Shown here: positions 40,075 through 53,700 of the stretch, piece by piece
Layout of the letters: each line of letters begins with the position of its first letter
Position numbering within the stretch: the stretch's first letter is position 1
Assembly (NCBI GenBank): GCA_046563655.1
Contig: CM102284.1
Coordinates: 6,200,001 to 6,264,000, forward strand
Direction of reading: 5' to 3'
Length of the DNA stretch: 64,000 nt
Source of the DNA: Yuukianura sp. NJ FZ-2021
Lineage: Eukaryota
The notes under the pieces: model-generated
The model's input: the letters and a program-made list of their open reading frames with translations, nothing else
What the model was told of the DNA's origin: nothing
Database searches by the model: none
Made by a program: the position numbers and the translations under genes

Positions 40075-41443
40075 GACTTTCCAATATCACAATGGAAAAA
40101 ATCTCTTTCCAAAATTTCACAAAATTGAAAAAAATTAAAAATTCATATTTCAGGAACGGAATGCAAGAAATTGCTAATTCCTTCACGACCGAATTTAAAA
40201 TGATTCCAGCCAAAACAACGGAAATCGAAAATTTGACTGATTTTTACGAAAATCCTTGAACTATAGTCAAGGGATATTTTGAAAATTTTAAATTTGGCAA
40301 AGTATTAATGATTTATTTTTTGATAAAAGTTTTTTGCAATGTTTGGGGCCACAGATATCACTGCAGGGTTGAAATTTTTTTTCATGAAGCCTTCTTTTGG
40401 TTTTAAATTTCATCAAACTATTTTTTGCAAAATTTTTGCACTACATTACGTAAAAAGATGTGGGACATGAGCATACTGCTTAAGCATTTAAATAGTCGAT
40501 TTGAAATTCATTTTTTTAAAGTTTCGAAATTCAACATAGAAATTCAATTATTTTTTTACTGCGACAGTTTCGACGTCGCCTAAAAATTAATTGTTTTCTT
40601 CTAAGGTTTCAGGCAGAAATTTTGCACACAAGAATTGGAAAATTTTTAAACGGCGTTAGAAGATAGCAATGGAAAAAATATTAATTTCTCAAGCAAGAAT
40701 GTTGCAAAAAATTTTGTTTGCAAAATTTTGCACTGCTTATGCTTATGTTTGGCTAAGATGTTTTGCAACCTGAGTCGAGCAAATTCAAAGATTTAAAGGA
40801 AAACCCACAAAATCACCTTCACATCTCTCTTAGCGAAGGTCTCAAATTCTTGTAAATTTTAAAATTTAGTACACAAGATGAAGTAAAGTTTCAAATTTGG
40901 TTGCTAATATTTTATTGTACTATTTGTATTAATAGTAATAATTATTGGTTCATTAACAATTTAAATTTAACACTCGCGTCTAACCTCCTCCATTTTTTTC
41001 AAAACAGCAGCAGCAACAATTTAAATGAAAAGAAAGACATCAACTTTTTGTTTCAATTTGTAAATTCAACATAGTTTTTATAGTTATGAAAAAAACGATT
41101 ATTTCAGTTAGCCACTACAACAAAGTTGTAACTGGAGATAACTTATTGTGAGTTATTTAGACTCGTCTAGGATTATTACTTGTTACATTTTTGTTTTGAC
41201 TCTCACAGAAACGTTAATTTGAGAAAACCTGGAAATTCTTAATCTAAAATTAATTGAAATTAATACTAGTATTTTAGTCCATTTGAATTAAGTCAGAAAG
41301 TTCGGAACATATCGCCAACAACTACTACTCCCTTGGACACAATGTCCCACGTCCCGCTCTCTCATGAATTATTAGTTAACATTATTTCTTTTCAAAAACC
41401 GAAACAAAATTGTAAATCTTAATTTAACTGAACGTGACTACGT

Positions 41444-44400
41444 TTAAATCCCATAAACGATGTTAAGTCTCTCTGCCAATTGAGTTGGAAAGGAGTTTGC
41501 AATGTTGTTCCAACATCCGGATTCCGTCAATTGCTGCTTGTAGCCCAAAAGAATCTAAAAAATCACAATCAAAATTAGCAACAATCCTCGCTGAACTTTT
41601 CAAAACGACTTGATTGATGAATTTGACTGACCTTGATGAACAGATTCTTGAGGTCTTCCGGTGGATTGCTCCAAGATGCAACAGCATCACAAAAGTAAAT
41701 AAAGTCCGGCAGAAGTGCACTGGGATTCATTTGAATCATTGAACAAATCCCACGGAATGCTGAATCCTTCTCGTCGTTATCACGAATGTTGCGCAAACTG
41801 GTACACCTAAGACAAAGAAAAACACAAGTATCAGGTCAAAGGTCAAAGTTCAACTCGAATCAAAAATAAAGTAAGTTAGTTTTACCAACGTCTGGAGAAC
41901 TGGCCCAGGAACTGACTCACTTCCTCTGGACAGACTAGTCCCAACCGTCCAATCGTAATGGCCGTGTTCTCCAACAAAGTCTTAGGTACATTCGAGTTGA
42001 TAATGTTGATTAGACTATTGATAATTAAATTAATATACACCTTCATACTATTCCCTAACTTAATACTAATCTCTCCTACGGCCCACGTCGCATTGTTACA
42101 GACGCTGATGTACTCTGGGTTGAGGTTCAGAGCCAAGATGCTCACAAATTCATTGATGTACGGCTTGATGTGGTTGAAGCAGGCCTTCGTAAGGTCTCCC
42201 AGCAGAGCAAACGAACTTTGACGTACTTCTGCCATTGGATCTTGCATCGTCTGATACAAAAGTGGTAGAATATTGCTGTTGACGACCAGCGTTTCAATGT
42301 CACTCGAAAGTCCTTCGGCCAGTCCAGACAAAAGATCCAGAGCCACAATCATGAAATCTTTGTCAGGTTGCTCAACAGTGGGCGATTGTGCTGAGGCAAT
42401 TTGTAGATTGAGTGTTTGTTCAATCAGATGGAGGCAACGACGGTAGACTGGCTCAGCGTATTTCTTGAACCCCGACTGAAGAGACGTTGCAATCGAAGAG
42501 AGGCACTACAGAGTTGTTTCCATTTGAAGGAAAAGTTGGGGAAAAAGAGAACACAAAGTTACGAATTAAAATAAGTTACTAAAATTTAGGGGAAATAAGC
42601 AGTATATAAGGCGGTAAAATAGTAATTAACTCTTAAAACTGCTAGATTAAGCAATTTTAGAAATTAATTAAAATTATAATAAGCCTAGTTGACACCAGCG
42701 TACTAGGAGTAAACGTAACTTATTACAGTTAGTTTAACTGGTTTCAACTAAATCTTAGAATTGCAAATCATATAGTTTCGAAACGTAATGTAAATGGATT
42801 AGCTTACCTCTAGTAAAGGAAACAAATCTTTATCTTCATCTTTTAAACAATTCCACTTATCAATTAGAGGAGGCATTAAGAGCGAGATATACTCTTCGTT
42901 ATTGAGATGGTAGCCCACTGAGTCTGCTAAAGTGCCGATCGCATCGTACAGAATCAGTAGATTCTTGTGCTGATATTTACTGAAGGCGAAGACCAGCGTT
43001 TCCAGGATGTACTTGAGGTACGGAACGAGCTCAGTACATGCTTCTTCTTCCAGGGTTGCAAAGGCAGAGCAAGCGGCTTCTTGCACGCGTTTGTTTGAGT
43101 CCAAAATACGAGACAGGAGAGAGTTCATGAGTGGTTTTAGGTAGACATGATTCGGTTGAGCTACGATCCAATGTGAGTATCGTGAAAGTGTCCAGCAAGT
43201 GATGGAGCGTACAAGTGCCTTTGGATTTCCAAGGGTCGAAATTAAGTACGGAATCAGTTCGGGCAGATGAGGAGTCATGCCCATACTACAACCTGTAATG
43301 AAAAATGCTTGATAATTGTCCAAAGTTAGGAAATTAGAAGACAACTAACCTTCAGCGATAGCACCCAATGCTAGAATTCCGCTTTCCTTGATCTCCCATT
43401 CAGTATGAAACAATGTCTCTTTGAGAATTGGAAGAAGTGTTGGCAGTAAATCATCACGAAACACGTTAGCAAGGATGTCAAGAGCTGCCGCGGAACATTT
43501 TCCTGGAAATCGAGACAAGATTCAAAAATAATTTCAAAGCACATACCAGCAATCATTTTTGGTTTGTCAGATGTACTTACGAAGATTCCAATCGCTGCAA
43601 CCGTGATCGTCGTCCTCCTCTTCGTCTTCCTCATCCTCCAATCCTTTATTTCTTCCTTTGTGGAATCTTGGCTTTATGTCCTCTTCTCTATCCGGGATAG
43701 CTTCGTCATCCTCAACGTCGCCTTTCAGCAGAATAATGTCAATTTCGCTGTACCGCATTCCTTTGACGAGCACTGGAATCAACCGTTCAAGGTATGGCGT
43801 CAGAACCTCCACACAGATTGGAGTTTCAGCCAAAGTCAACCAGAATTCACAAGCTTCAAGAGAAACAGTTTCTTCTGGATCTTGTGTCCGCATGAGGATG
43901 TACTCGATTATTGAATTCAAGTAAGGAAGTAGTCTGTGGATGTGTATGTCTAGGAGCATGACTAAACCACGGCAAATCTGTTTCTTTACTTGAGTATCTT
44001 CATCCGCTGACAAGAGGAATAGATTCTAAAAAACACGGAAAAGTCCATTACCTGCAACTTTTAGGGAATGCCGATTTTAAAGTTTCAACTCACGTTCAAG
44101 TAAGTGTCCAGATGATTTGCCAGAACGTTTGACTTTGACAAAATGAACTGGTTGATACAAGCAATCGCATGAGACCGAATCCTAGGATTGCGATGATTGA
44201 AGTATTGTAAGAACTTCATGACCAAAACATTTAGCTGCGCTTCGTCGGCTTCCAGCAGTTCATAGCTGTCTTCACAAATTTTTTGGAGTGCTGAGTATGC
44301 GCCCTGTTCAAAGCGAGGGGTAAAAATCAATACATCAATTCAGAAAAACCTTACTACTGTAAATGTGAACGAACCCGGTGTGATTATATTGATTGTGCTT

Positions 44401-45467
44401 ACCTCTACTCCAAACTCATATTGCGGATCATTGGAAGACGTAGACGTGTCCAAAAGATTGATCAAACTGGGGATCAACTCCGGCCAGTACTTGGAATTGG
44501 TATAAATTGTGGTAATGATGATACCCACAGTCGCTCGAATCAAACATGACTGGTCGCTCAAACTGTTCAAACACTCATACTTGATTAGATTTATCGTCTC
44601 AGCCGGAAACGCATCATAGTATTGCTTCAGATTGTTCTTAAGGATGAGTCCTGCTAGGGAACGAGTAGCATCATCTAAGGACAAAGCAATATTTAGTTAA
44701 TCTATTTACTAAAAAACATTCCAAGAGAAATTAATATGAAATCATAGGAAAGTGTCAAGTCTGACAGCAATCAAGTTAATAATAATATAGACAAATTAAA
44801 ACTGGATCACACGTACTGACGTCCTGAATATAAGCAATCGAATCAGACGAGGCCATTGATGACAAAAAGTTAATCTTCCCTTCCGCGGTTAACTTGGTTA
44901 AAACAAAGATTAAGTAATTATTGAAATCAGGATATTTACTGAGGTCATCCAATTTCTAGAAACAAACAAAAAGAGAAACAAAAATAAATTAACGACATAT
45001 ATATACAAACAACAACAATAATAATTAAGAAATCAAAATCGTGTCAAAGTCAAAGTATTTTTGGTGATGGATAGCTGAATTTGAACGTGATGGTGTCGTC
45101 GTCGTGCTAAAAAACGGCAAGGCTCTACTTATCACGCATAATCATCTAATGTCAAATGGCAACTCAATTAACCATATCGTCATGCATGTCACAGGTCACA
45201 GCAGCAGCAGAATTTTAGTTTAGCCAGCCAGTCATCATCACGTTGATCACATGACACATCGTTTTATACCTTGTAGTTAATCTAATGACAATGGTTAGAC
45301 TATGATAGTTCGATTAATCCTGATTGTTCTTAAGTTACCTGATTCACGACTCTTTGTACACTGTTATCAGATGACTGGGATTCCTTCAGTAACTGTAATA
45401 TTTGCCTCAGCCCTTCTTCCTGAGGGATCCAAGGTCCTTGAACTCCAGTTGTATCTGGTGTCTCCAT
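41444..45467 (-). CDS. TNPO1: Transportin-1 (karyopherin beta-2)
   Basis: 10 exons. [55 protein letters not shown]8 loop [13 protein letters not shown]...[76 protein letters not shown]. Confidence 0.97.
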
Positions 45468-46228
45468 TGTGTTCTGCTTGTGACCTTTGCCTAAACAGTT
45501 TCTAAACTTTATTTGAACAACACAAACTGCAAAACGTTTCTTCAAAAAATTGTCAAAAACGATCTTCAAAATCTCCGAAAAAAATTGTGTGTTCTCCGTT
45601 GAACTCGAACCTTCGAAAAAGTGATTTTTTTTTGCTCTGTTTTTTCACACACCCCTCAGATGTTGCTCCTTGATCGGCATCCCACACTTTAAATGTTCAC
45701 ATAAAGTTAAGCAATTGACAATTAAACTAATCATGTTTAACATTATCATCATGCATAAAACTACCAGTTACTAAGTAGTTATAACTTGGTTAATTGCTAA
45801 TACTTGTAAACTTGTTTACATTAATAACGCAATTAAGAACGTCCAAAATGAATCACTTGCAGTGTTGCCAGATTTCTTCCGCCAGGCATTTAGCTCAACG
45901 AAGAAAATATTGCGCTTTTGGATGCCCCGAAGAAAGCACTTTCCTTGCGGAGAAAGTGGAGAAAGCTTTTCCCGTTGCGTAGGGTGTGGTTCTTCTTTAT
46001 ATCTTCGTTTTTTATAGGATTTTGTCCGAAAATCATGTCCAAAATAGTACAATAGGATAAAAGGCGTTAGTCATTCCTCAGAAGATCTCCGAAGGCGACA
46101 TTTCGGTGACCACCGCCCAAATACACCGTGCTTTCCCTTCCTAATTCAACAAAAGAAAGTCAAATCTTAACTCTTAACGTACTCTTTTCTTCTCTACGAC
46201 CGTCGACCTCTCAAGGAAAACCGTCACC

Positions 46229-48277
46229 CTGAATTTTAATACTTTCAAACAGTCCTTTTCGACGAATGTCAATGCCATCAAAAGACGGTTTTCGTCAAGT
46301 GACCTCGCAAATGACGGGGCTGCTCAAGACGAAACGGAAGCGACGACGACGTCGTCGGAAACCGGACGCGTAGGAAGTACTAATCCAGCAAGGCCTATGA
46401 CTAGCCAGCAGTCAGCATCATCCAGCAGTACTTCTTCTCCAGCTACGCAGCATCAACACTCAACATCAGCCAGTAGTCAACCGTCGTCGACCATCTCTGC
46501 TCCAACGAGTCCTATTAAATCTGGAACATCCATTTTGCAAAGAGTTCAGTCTCTAACTGGAGCGGTCACTAAAGAGGTCACGACGACTGTGTCAAATGTC
46601 ATTGACAAATACAGCTCAAATACGAATATCAAAATTGAGCGGAATACCAGGGACATTATTATCCTGGTAGTGGATGACTATAAGACGGAATGGTAAGTGA
46701 AAGTCACTTTCACCAAAATTTTGAACTTTAAATTTGAAAACACCTTTGAGTGTCTGAATTTATTCCCAGGTCAAAATACTTCCCAGCCACACTTCAAAAT
46801 TACAACTTAAAATTAATTCAACTGCAGATTAATCAGTTTTACACGCTGGCCACTGAGACAACAACGTTGGTATTTCCTCTCCAGTCAGCCGGAGGATCTG
46901 GAGCTCCGTTTATACCGGACTTTGTATTCTTTCGCCAACCACTCAACAATCACAAGTCAATTTTGATCAGTTTCAATTACACCAATGTGGAATCAATTAA
47001 TAATTTACAGTCTCTGTACTTGTCACTTGACAAGCCTTGGATTTGGGGACAACTCAATGCCTTGAAGTGAGACCTTACTTCCAAAATTTTGATTTACGAG
47101 ACTCCTTTTTCGAAAAATGAAATTTTCGAATGCTTTCTCCTCGGAAATTGTAACAAGGAAGAAAGTTGATGTTGATTGATGTTCTCTTGTATAACACCTT
47201 GTGTGTGTTATGTAGGTTGCCATTGATTGAGCAGGTCTTTTACTCTGACTATCGAGCCATGGGCTATTATTACTTTAGAAGTAGCAATATACTCAAACTA
47301 GGATCCTATCACGGTAAGAGGTCAAGAGGTCAACCTATAAATTATTGATATTACGGGGAAGTTTACTTAACTGAAAATTTTATCAATTACTTTCGGTTAG
47401 GTGGACTTGGAAAGTTGAAAGTGAAAGACGTCAATGAATGGCAGGTGAGATAGAAAACGGAAGGAAGTGAAGAGAAAGCACGATTTTTCACTTCGTTCAA
47501 CTCATTTCCATGTTAAATAATCAATGATCTCTTGTGACCTTTGACCTTTTGTTCCTTTTAGGACTCCATTGGAATCGTTCAACTTTCTAAAGACTACTGT
47601 ACGGCTGAGCCCTACGTAGAAACACGGACAGAAGTTCATCTTCAAAAAATCGGGCCTCAGTATAAAGGCTTCATGTAAAATGCTTTCGAGTTTATAGAAA
47701 GTTTTGCAACTTTTGAAAGAATTTTGAACTTTGCTTTTGATTTAGGAAAAAATCGCTTGGTCCCTCTTGGAAATCCTCCACTTCGAATACGATTCTAGAA
47801 GAAATTCAAATAACTGAACGCTACAAGGGCTATTTGGACTCTGTAGCGACTCATCTGAACCTAGAGATCCTTCAGTTGGAGTTTTTAATTCACCAAGGCA
47901 AGGAGTACTTGATTGAACTCAATGATTCTAGCTCTCTCAACTTCCTTGGTGAAGGTCAAGAGGAGGACAAGAAGGTCATCGTGGACATGATTCTGTCCAG
48001 ACTCAATAAACTGGCCAACAGTGAAGACTGGGTCAAACGAAGATCCGCAGTGGCTGGAACGAGTGCTGGCGGAGGTAGGCGTGGTTCGGTTAGTTCCGAT
48101 GACAAGCCGGCAGCGCGGAGAGAGTCCCAGGGGTCAGTGAAGTACTTTAAGCAAAATTCGGTTACTGACGTCGTAGGTTCCGCTGGAAGTACTGCTGCTC
48201 CAGGAGAGTCTGACGATACAATGGACACTATGAAAAATTTAAGGAAAACGTTCCAAGGGATTTTTGGTGATATGTGA
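46229..48277 (+). CDS. Syn: Synapsin (predicted CUG start at 46229; first in-frame ATG at 46397)
   Basis: Exons 46229-46692, 46770-47066, 47216-47313, 47401-47444, 47562-47674, 47746-48277. Domain A LNFNTFKQSFSTNVNAIKRRFSSSDL; C domain DDYKTEWSKYF, PDFVFFRQ, DKPWIWGQL, GSYHGGLGKLKV, YCTAEPYV, QKIG..YKGFM; E domain DTMKNLRKTFQGIFGDM. Confidence 0.9.
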
Positions 48278-50710: not shown

Positions 50711-53700
50711 CTACGGACTGTCCTTAGTTGGGGGCGGTGAGGTAGGTTCATCTTCTTCTTCATCTAGGGTAAGCTTGAACTGAATAGTGTTGCTGGGTGG
50801 GGAGGGAGTGATGAGGTTGTTGTAATATTCTCGATTGATTTCCAAAATGTCAAGGATTTCACAGGTCAAAGGATGCTGAACCAGTTCGTTCCAAGTTTCC
50901 CAAAGTGGATGACAAATGTAGTCAATGAAACCAACCTGGAACAATTAAAAACCAAAAATTAAGTCAGGAATGAGCCACTATCACCTTGAACTTTGCAATT
51001 TTTGAAAGGTGAAACTCATTTGCTGAAGGTCGTTTTTATGTCAGAGATAAAAGTTTCACCTGAGTCTTTTCTATTGAAGAGTTATTGCGGTCACACATCG
51101 GTGAAACATCAAGTCCGAGGTCACGCTCTCGGTCTCCTTGTAAGTAAAACTCCTTCATCACGAGCTCCACCCATTGTTTGTACAATTCTAACTCCTTCGT
51201 TGGATTACTCAGATCAGCACAGTGAACTAGCGTTTGTAGAACCTGAAAACCACATCAAAATTTTGAAATTCAAAATTCCAGAATTTCAAAAATGAAACTT
51301 TAGGTTAATGATTTTGATAAGTTTTTATGATCGGAAGACGTTTTGGAGGTGAATTTGCTTTCACTTTGTTTCGAAATTTTTAATATTAGAATGTTTTTAC
51401 GTTAAATCTTACTTGAATCCGTTCTTGGTAGTCATCAAAACATAGGATTCCATTAGTAATCGTTTTGGTTTCCACCATTGTCTTTAAGTTAGAGAGTAGA
51501 ATCATGTGTTTAGACATGTCCGTAGCCAGTACAATGTCAATGACCAGTTTCCGCATCGTTTGTCGCTGTAATCTCGTTAGAGAGGCCAAAATGTCACAGC
51601 CTGGTGTCTGAAGTAATTTGAAACCAATTGAAAGGTGATGATTTTCTAATACTGACTCGTCGTTGTACAGAAGTGCTAAACTGGAATCTAAAAAACAACA
51701 AAATCGATTAGAATCTAATAAAAAAAATCTCGTTAACAATGCTATTGTCTTTCTCAGCTTTCTCTTCTTTCTCTTTTTCAAATAAAACTCATTTCTAAAG
51801 AATCTTCGCTTTTTTCAAGAACTTTCTCTTCTTGTCTTTCTTTTCAATTTTTTACCCGAGTTGATGAGAAACTGATTCGTGACTCCAGGGTGATCCACAT
51901 CATGAATCATGGCTCCAAAGAGAGTTGCCAAAATTTCTAGTTGACTAAACACTTCACTAAAACTTTCTAGATTGAGTAGAATATTTGTAGAATTGAGGAC
52001 GTCTGTAGCATGGAGATTGTTGTGATATGGTACTGAAGAGTGATAATTGGATTCTAAATTTAGTAAATAATTTACAAGTGTAGTGTGCGGGATATTAAAC
52101 GTCTTGAAGAAATTGCGACTCTGCCAAAAAGAGAAACAAAAGATATGAATTACGAAATTTTTACAATTTGCACATCATAATTTTAAGAAGTCAGCAACAA
52201 ACTATTTACACGCCCGTTTCTCGTGAAAAGTGAATTCGCACCTTCCTGTTTGTGCGAAAACAGACGGTGTGAACCACTTAGGAGGAACGTGCCAATAAGT
52301 TGAGAAACGTGCTAATCGATTTACCTTAAAAATATGATAGCCTAAGCATGTAAGAGGCTTGAAGTTGCAGATAGAGTTCAAATGGAATACGTTTAAATTC
52401 CAATTATTTGTTTCTAGTAGTGAGGTCACTTCTTCCAAGTTGTTTTCTTCCAAAGGGATACCAAAGGGCTGTTCCAGAGCATTAGTTGATGTAGGGGTAC
52501 CCTCAACCAGGGCTACTTTCAAATCCATGTTATTTGCTAGGAAGTTCAGCTCAGGCAACTGCTTATCTGATTTTCAAACCAATTCACCAAATTCAGTTCA
52601 TGTTTTGAGAGTAGTTCACTAAATTCATCTCAGATTTTGAGATTATCCACCCGTAAACGAGATTTCATCAACGCCAAGGCCAGTTTTGGTGCTTTTAGAT
52701 TTTTTTTTTAACTTTCAGCACCATATATGGTAACGGTATTTAGAAAAATTCATTTCCAGAAAACGCTAATCCAGTTTTTAGTGAAAAGAGTTTTGGACAC
52801 GAATGTGCTTAAAAGTTATGAATTTTGGAAAATTTATGAAATTTTTGATGAAATTTTTCCGTGTGACTTACCAATATAAGTACTAAGGAGGTAATTGCTG
52901 ATTAAGTTTCCAGATTTGGACGATTCTGAAAATTGACTCAATTCCTTGTTCAGCATTTTCTTAAACTGAAATTTCGAAATGAAAAAAGTTACACTTTGAA
53001 CCAAAATTTTGAACTTTTTTGCACTCCTTACCTTGCTCGTAGTCATATCACTTATACTTTTCGTTATATGGAGATTCTCGAGTTGATCTGTCACCCAATC
53101 AAGCTATAAAAAGTTCCAAAAAACACAAAACAAAATTTCAGAATTCCTTTTAGTCCAAATCACGACTTTTAACATTATGCTAAGCACAGAGGTCAAAGGT
53201 CACCCCAAAAAATTGGCAAACGGACAACAGTCTATTGGAATTTTAGTAGAGGAGACCGGTTTTAATTTCGGGACTCTTCACGCTTGGAAAGGCTGAGAAG
53301 AGACTGTGCTCTGGCCAAATGATCTCACAAAAGAGCAACTTTTTTGCACTTTGGAGCAATTTTTTTGTTTTGCAAAAATCAATTTACCTCGTCCAAGGTC
53401 TCTTGCACGATTCCATGATTTTCTGGAGTTGGTTTGGTGGGTGGATTGGCCGGTTCTGGAGCAGACTGCAAAGGTGTAGCGATTCCCTGCGTTCCAGCTG
53501 CATTGGAGCAAGACGTTGAAGTGGATGGGGTACTACTTGAACAACGCCGAGATCTGTCAAATCAATCATCCTCTTCAATTAAATTGGGAATTACAATTAC
53601 TAATCATACTGTATAGTCACAATTAACTTAAAGAGACAATTAGTATGGCCATATTGCGTGACGTAGTGAGGCAAAACTTGTTTCCACATGAAATAGCATT

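Follow-up and report, generated by a model that had tools for sequence, protein, structure and literature searches.

Synapsin controls neurotransmitter release, and the PKA/CaMKI site in its domain A controls its hold on synaptic vesicles. Translation of this protein from a non-AUG codon is already known in a fly and in cephalopods. FlyBase counts Syn as one of 11 genes with a CUG start, citing Klagges 1996 (PMC4528330), and in Drosophila Syn domain A precedes the first ATG, Edman analysis having given the CTG-encoded leucine as residue 1 (PMC1660579, Diegelmann 2006); the PKA/CaMKI site of domain A is the sequence RRFS (PMC1660579). For Octopus vulgaris, O. bimaculoides, and Loligo pealei, a non-AUG start was deduced from an upstream in-frame stop, and the pertinent passage of that report ascribes an unusual start to molluscan synapsins only, with isoleucine in the two octopuses, and gives no comparative analysis of start context (PMC6817820). 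Functional proteins that depend on a near-cognate start in good context are likewise encoded by the mammalian genes EIF4G2, TRPV6, TEAD1, and STIM2 (10.1101/2022.05.02.490320; PMC5666671). Production of the shorter form is inhibited, and in these genes expected to be blocked, when the extension contains an out-of-frame AUG (10.1101/2022.05.02.490320), and start context matters more for non-AUG codons (PMC5666671). These genes are unrelated to synapsin, in which the start column switches among CUG, AUU, and AUG and for which we infer exclusive use of the start.

The window, by which we mean the whole stretch of 64,000 nucleotides of Yuukianura sp. NJ FZ-2021 DNA that was analysed, contains a probable further case, a synapsin gene that shares with Drosophila Syn the CUG, its alignment column, a first ATG downstream of domain A, and the RRFS site. 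Six exons separated by GT-AG introns encode an intact protein of 515 residues if read from CTG 46229 or 459 residues if read from ATG 46397 (Table 1). Domain C, with its pre-ATP-grasp and ATP-grasp parts, is identified by Pfam Synapsin_C matches in exons 5 and 6 and by PDB matches to synapsins I, II, and III, and domain E by the alignment of DTMKNLRKTFQGIFGDM with the insect C-terminus. Domain A, with its RRxS motif, is present by alignment to 11 homologues; Pfam scans reported no domain A model for either the window protein or a Drosophila synapsin (P0004). This is the single synapsin found in the source genome, where family and protein searches found no second paralogue that would make the window copy dispensable. 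In a quick tree of 98 of 240 rows, which left out most Lepidoptera, most drosophilids, and rows covering <85% of domain C, the window synapsin has a very long branch within an insect-plus-copepod clade (98), and on this basis its source is probably a pancrustacean. The protein evolves very fast (stem branch of 1.86 changes per column), and its identity to insect synapsins is about 35%. Conservation is kept in domains A and E, and the function of domain C may be relaxed. An 87-nt intron (47314-47400) is absent from a close relative, in which exons 3 and 4 are fused, indicating gain or loss between the two.

Table 1. Features of the synapsin locus and its upstream neighbour, in window coordinates
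Feature	Position	Strand	Basis or remark
Transportin-1, first coding exon	45339-45467	-	its ATG lies 762 nt upstream of CUG 46229
Blocks shared with L013: GGGTGTGGTTC (45982-45992), AAGGCGTT (46061-46068), GGCGACAT (46094-46101)	45982-46101	+	DNA alignment
In-frame stop TAA	46175-46177	+	in L013 the stop is instead 9 codons upstream
Pyrimidine run and AAG (46213-46215), candidate 3′ splice site in leader	46183-46215	+	AGs of L013 lie elsewhere
Start context AAAACCGTCACC, −12 to −1	46217-46228	+	C at −8, G at −6, C at −4, A at −3
CUG, putative synapsin translation start	46229-46231	+	Drosophila residue 1 aligns here; CTG also in L013 and L015
Synapsin domain A, 26 codons, upstream of first in-frame ATG	46229-46306	+	alignment; identical in L013
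Coding exon 1: domains A, B, and start of C	46229-46692	+	tblastn and intact frame
Out-of-frame ORF, 35 codons, with ATGs 46266 (+37), 46272, and 46311	46266-46373	+	TAG 46371-46373, 23 nt before ATG 46397
RRFS, PKA/CaMKI site (AGA CGG TTT TCG)	46283-46294	+	sequence; role of motif from PMC1660579
First in-frame ATG (Met57), weak context	46397-46399	+	not conserved: absent from L013
Coding exon 2	46770-47066	+	Pfam Synapsin PF02078 weak, E 0.067
Coding exon 3	47216-47313	+	tblastn, intact frame
Coding exon 4	47401-47444	+	fused with exon 3 in L013
Coding exon 5	47562-47674	+	Pfam Synapsin_C above cut-off
Coding exon 6: remaining domain C, domain E (…KTFQGIFGDM), TGA 48275-48277	47746-48277	+	Pfam Synapsin_C E 4e-12

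Several features distinguish this gene from that of the fly. The encoded protein is very divergent and lacks the upstream Cys-bearing extension described below. There is no intron at the window RRFS, whereas insect loci do have one there, so that the intron-based duplex for ADAR editing in the fly cannot form; the second arginine codon is CGG, which A-to-I editing cannot convert to a glycine codon; and 31 codons lie behind the stop, TGA-A, where nothing points to the UAG readthrough of the fly. Fly-type editing and readthrough are therefore not indicated.

The frame opened by CTG 46229, in the context GTCACC-CTG-A, continues for 56 codons and encodes LNFNTFKQSFSTNVNAIKRRFSSSDL before the first in-frame ATG is reached. 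The in-frame TAA lies 18 codons 5′ of the CUG, and the nearest ATG on that side, in any frame, is at 46035. As in Drosophila, a near-cognate codon thus occupies the column of residue 1 with no in-frame ATG in the open frame upstream. In tblastn, residues 1-162 of Drosophila synapsin align with this stretch and residue 1 falls on CTG 46229, in agreement with the first-pass annotation, which had placed the CUG at the position homologous to the fly start. Its further statement that domain A lies 5′ of the first ATG is borne out by alignment to homologues and by the same arrangement in the close relative, and the positions it gave for the CTG, the TAA, the TCATTC motif, the ATGs, and the 35-codon ORF were all correct when the sequence was read again. 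On these letters, domain A can be translated only from 46229 or from a codon just before it, barring an unseen exon with its own ATG. The base at −3 of the CTG is A; at the ATGs 46266, 46272, 46311, and 46397 it is always a pyrimidine, and none of them is followed by G at +4. Together, the reading frame, the homology, the conservation of codon and context, and the close relative's lack of ATG 46397 lead us to conclude, at a probability of roughly 0.9, that synapsin is translated from CUG 46229 as the main or only start yielding a protein with domain A.

Conservation of the start was examined by scanning metagenome contigs with a pattern that covered synapsin codons 3-19, left positions −12 to +6 free, and selected NVN-type domain A only. 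Among 32 matches, 14 were dropped as chance from their translations and 18 were kept as synapsin domain A, and tblastn confirmation against named synapsins was run on these 18 only. With the window they make 19 loci in 11 distinct haplotypes, which are related and not independent draws. The start column holds ATT in 16 and CTG in two (L013 and L015) of the 18 scanned loci, ATG in none of them, and across the 11 haplotypes, window included, neither ATG nor any isoleucine or leucine codon other than ATT and CTG occurs there. The surrounding positions are similarly constrained, with A at −3 and a purine at −6 in 11/11 haplotypes, C at −8 in 10/11, and C at −4 in 8/11; the joint chance of A at −3 in all 11 is ~1e-7 from local base shares, a value in which the kinship of the haplotypes overstates their independence. 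In all 19 loci an in-frame stop lies 4-41 codons upstream of the column with no in-frame ATG between, and the nearest upstream ATG is at least 128 nt away in 10/11 haplotypes. AUGs are scarce in the leaders (Fisher p about 5e-5 over nine lineages against a rough local null, a value that likewise overstates independence), and comparison of the haplotypes indicates that codon and context are conserved beyond synonymous expectation.

The proposal that a non-AUG start is deeply conserved in arthropods thus holds as far as its non-AUG nature is concerned, but CUG is the less common codon and AUU the prevailing one: at the L/M-N-F column of the 5′ regions, where the first-pass annotation had suggested looking for CTG, this codon occurs in 3/11 haplotypes and ATT in 8/11. 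As judged from these alignments, what has been conserved is the column, the strong context, and the near-cognate nature of the start, the codon itself being variable. The octopus isoleucine matches this AUU class, a likeness drawn by start residue and not by column.

Two of the loci are decisive. The first, L013, comes from a close relative with 94% identity to the window in domain C, and its start is a CTG in the context GTCAAC-CTG-A. The first 28 residues are identical between the two (28/28) despite 14 synonymous codon changes, and the stretch from the CTG, being under purifying selection as well as aligned with the fly protein, is no product of chance; in exon 2, 40 of 87 codons are synonymously changed. 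CTG accounts for 7 of 43 leucine codons in the window gene, and ATT for 4 of 22 isoleucine codons in the second decisive locus, L005. No counterpart of ATG 46397 exists in L013, where the first in-frame methionine is residue 265, inside domain C, and it is strongly implied that no AUG-initiated functional proteoform would arise from its mRNA. In L013 an out-of-frame ORF of 75 codons (176-403), opened by ATG 176, ends on a TGA overlapping the CUG; the window has no equivalent.

L005, an aphid contig, carries an intron-free ORF of 544 codons, with a TAA four codons before an ATT. Its 5′ part, 260 nt long, is free of ATG, and the contig is apparently a spliced mRNA. It is 100% identical to an annotated aphid protein (P0012) over all 508 residues of the latter, and extends that model by domain A, beginning at the ATT. 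Because L005 is apparently spliced, with an AUG-free leader and domain A encoded from ATT, it demonstrates directly both a non-AUG start in an aphid and an error of annotation. The expectation that ATG-based annotation truncates the regulatory domain is accordingly borne out by an example, P0012 lacking the domain A that L005 encodes. These two loci also bear on initiation at ATG 46397, which would yield a protein beginning MTSQQ and devoid of domain A. That codon is the first in-frame ATG, and aphid gene models are annotated likewise (P0007, P0008, P0010-P0013); it is, however, missing from L013, in which the 28 residues upstream of it are fully conserved, it has a weak context, three out-of-frame ATGs precede it, and the aphid model that would serve as its parallel is the one that L005 corrects. 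We consider it the least probable of the readings weighed here, although a minor short Met57 isoform may occur in the window species alone.

If the non-AUG start holds across insects and their kin, many database proteins would be wrong at the N-terminus. Aphid models start at a downstream methionine without domain A, while those of a psyllid, a beetle, a hoverfly, and a mosquito carry unrelated upstream sequence, and phosphosite, antibody, and evolutionary work on species with a misannotated synapsin would inherit the error.

At the protein level, the N-terminal motif is found in 49 of 237 stored proteins, with leucine (29), isoleucine (13), or methionine (7) at the column of CTG 46229. Every such methionine is residue 1, including those of Trichuris, Soboliphyme, and Megaselia; two nematode synapsins, from Trichuris and Soboliphyme, thus have their start methionine at this column. 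The residue before the column is T, N, or K in 42/42 of the proteins without methionine there, residues that are chemically unlike and share codons beginning with A. The annotated models either carry sequence upstream of the column that bears no relation from one order to the next, or are incomplete, or begin downstream of the column without domain A. Megaselia-type proteins (P0019, P0118, and P0152) begin with methionine at the column, perhaps reflecting a return to AUG in phorid flies. Tick-type synapsins (P0032, P0100, and P0180) have YPATNPFS…AAK in common 5′ of the column, are without the Asn-Val pair from which an out-of-frame AUG at +37 is formed elsewhere, and may start further upstream.

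A conserved Cys-bearing stretch precedes the column in 31 of the 49 proteins, mostly from Lepidoptera and also from beetles, wasps, and one Drosophila; since the leucine or isoleucine there may be an internal residue, these rows are not independent proof of the start. The stretch reads K/N-I…C-x-x-[YI]-C and begins, in frame, 16-23 residues before the main column (P0003, P0005, P0015, P0020, P0040, and 26 others). Among the DNA loci, L016 and L022 have it 57 nt 5′ of the main ATT, and in L016 its isoleucine is an ATT in the start-like context ATCAAG-ATT-A. This arrangement suggests a second, upstream AUU start in Holometabola that would give a longer isoform with a cysteine pair, and palmitoylation of that pair may be guessed at. 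Initiation in the window at another non-AUG codon, or spread over several near-cognate codons, could be envisaged by analogy with this apparent second AUU, and an ACG (46196) and an AGG (46214) do lie in frame between the TAA and the CTG. Yet the base at −3 of the ACG is T, L013 does not conserve the stretch and has its frame closed nine codons upstream, and protein conservation begins exactly at CTG 46229. This alternative therefore appears extremely unlikely.

A different reading would make the CTG an internal leucine codon, by joining an ATG-bearing upstream exon (ATG 45922 with donor 45984, or ATG 45848 with donor 45979) to the AG at 46214-46215. The room for such exons is bounded by the transportin-1 gene, which lies head-to-head with synapsin on the minus strand (41400-45467), with its ATG close upstream (Table 1). 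Between that ATG and the CUG, seven formal ATG-donor-acceptor joins give an in-frame fusion, and the AG follows a pyrimidine run, a CTTAAC, and a 54-nt AG-free stretch. The best join, GG|GTGTGG (45984), is conserved in L013, with similar intron lengths in the two species and a joined L013 frame that stays open for 52 codons to the contig end; moreover, insect synapsin genes have exons 5′ of domain A, RRFS lying at the exon 4/5 junction (PMC1660579). Against these points, all nine defined introns (five in the window, four in L013) have A at donor +4 and end in YAG, whereas the candidates would pair GTGTGG or GTAGGG with AAG. The acceptor would be in phase 2 in the window and in phase 1 in L013, whose AGs end at −8 and −5, not −13; the frame over the shared donor block differs between the two, the peptides are unrelated, and ATG 45922 has no L013 counterpart. 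Such an exon would also leave unexplained the invariant CTG or ATT with A at −3 and the spliced aphid contig L005. The first-pass annotation had named this splicing event as the one that would overturn the CUG start; it finds no support in L013, with its AGs elsewhere and in another phase, and on the sequences compared an upstream AUG exon seems quite unlikely. A non-coding intron in the leader is possible and would leave translation from CUG 46229 unchanged.

The blocks GGGTGTGGTTC, AAGGCGTT, and GGCGACAT, shared with L013, are likely to be promoter or leader elements, and GGGTGTGG, in the shared donor region, also reads as what we take to be a KLF/Sp-type site. The Inr-like TCATTC reported earlier is indeed present, at 46071-46076, but is not kept in L013. 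A promoter composed of Inr and DPE at 46067-46101 is not supported, given the absence of TCATTC from L013 and a spacing of two shared blocks of 33 versus 19 nt. ATG 45848 (context CAAA-ATG) opens a 44-codon ORF (45848-45982) containing KYC, loosely like the insect Cys motif; the likeness is probably due to chance, and the synapsin frame is reached only via a weak donor. The sequence GCAGTGTTGCCA stands between transportin-1 and synapsin at 45860-45871, and its reverse complement resembles what is presumably the insect housekeeping-promoter motif TGGYAACR. The transportin-1 frame is open for a few codons 5′ of its ATG, so that a longer N-terminus via an upstream exon is possible for that protein.

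Translation from CUG 46229 can be pictured as follows. A cap-loaded ribosome would scan the AUG-free leader, and a fraction of ribosomes would initiate at the CUG, as expected from its near-optimal context (A at −3, GTCA at −6 to −3). The base at +4 is A, not G, and with this base and no conserved downstream hairpin the efficiency of initiation may be modest. Ribosomes that skip the CUG would encounter the out-of-frame AUGs that begin at +37, translate a short junk peptide, and mostly be lost, so that little synapsin without the RRFS site would be made. Because AUG, AUU, and CUG all occur at the column across animals, initiation by Met-tRNAi is likelier than by a leucine tRNA, although Edman analysis of the fly protein gave leucine. 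Synapsin output would thereby be capped and tied to start-codon stringency (eIF1, eIF5, and 5MP).

The +37 ATG is present in all 19 synapsin loci (11/11 haplotypes). It arises from AAT-GTn, encoding Asn13-Val14, and AAT is used in all 19 although the scanning pattern allowed AAC; codon 13 is the sole invariant codon among seven conserved-residue columns, Asn15, for instance, being AAT in six haplotypes and AAC in five. In 9/11 haplotypes the ORF from this ATG spans four codons and ends at a stop that arises from Leu17-Lys18, and in the window and L013, where residue 17 is isoleucine, it is longer, at 35 and 28 codons. The context of the AUG is weak, with C at −3 in 10/11 and T at +4 in 11/11, so it would be a partial trap. 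The earlier claim that the out-of-frame ORF intercepts scanning ribosomes before ATG 46397 is therefore upheld as to the three ATGs and the 35 codons, but interception would be incomplete.

Avoidance of CpG was considered as a cause of the +37 ATG and rejected as a general explanation. It can account for the window lineage, where AAT outnumbers AAC before G by 48 to 24 in long ORFs and by 6 to 0 in synapsin, but not for L005, which favours C before G (5 versus 22), or for the CpG-rich L016. This control weakens the +37 signal and does not remove it. The rough joint chance of an invariant codon 13 is 1e-3, or 7e-3 after allowing for seven columns, several of the underlying shares being proxies or set by hand. 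That the +37 AUG serves as a trap for ribosomes that skip the start is suggestive only, and we give it about even odds; an RNA-level constraint of another kind is the alternative for its invariance.

MNYL-type synapsins, from a sea spider (P0193) and others, have an in-frame start methionine at codon 14, which in the window encodes valine, and the RRFS site would for this reason depend on the non-AUG start. Combining these observations, we tentatively propose, at slightly under even odds, an old, selected pancrustacean cassette in which an AUG-free leader, an AUU or CUG whose extended context is optimal, and a +37 AUG at a fixed place that discards skipping ribosomes act together, the change of Met to Val at codon 14 having made the non-AUG start obligatory and a second holometabolan AUU adding an isoform with C-x-x-x-C that is possibly lipid-anchored. 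Were this cassette real, synapsin dose would track start-codon stringency in neurons. A start kept off AUG for hundreds of millions of years, with switching between CUG and AUU, would also bear on why exclusive non-AUG starts persist. The literature searched, outside which most subscription journals fall, yielded no report of the +37 AUG, a cross-arthropod analysis, the prevalence of AUU, the conserved context, or the second upstream AUU.

A hairpin downstream of the start was considered as an aid to initiation and rejected, since folding gave z-values of −1.2 to +0.8 in 5/5 intron-free loci and none was conserved. One window segment folded at z −2.5 (one of four folds), owing to a 10-bp helix: the leader immediately 5′ of the CUG (46216-46225) and the RRFS codons (46284-46293) form a perfect inverted repeat of that length, which is absent from L013. 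Downstream of synapsin, a gene ending on the minus strand reads, at 50745-51240, like what we take to be the catalytic domain of a cyclic-nucleotide phosphodiesterase.
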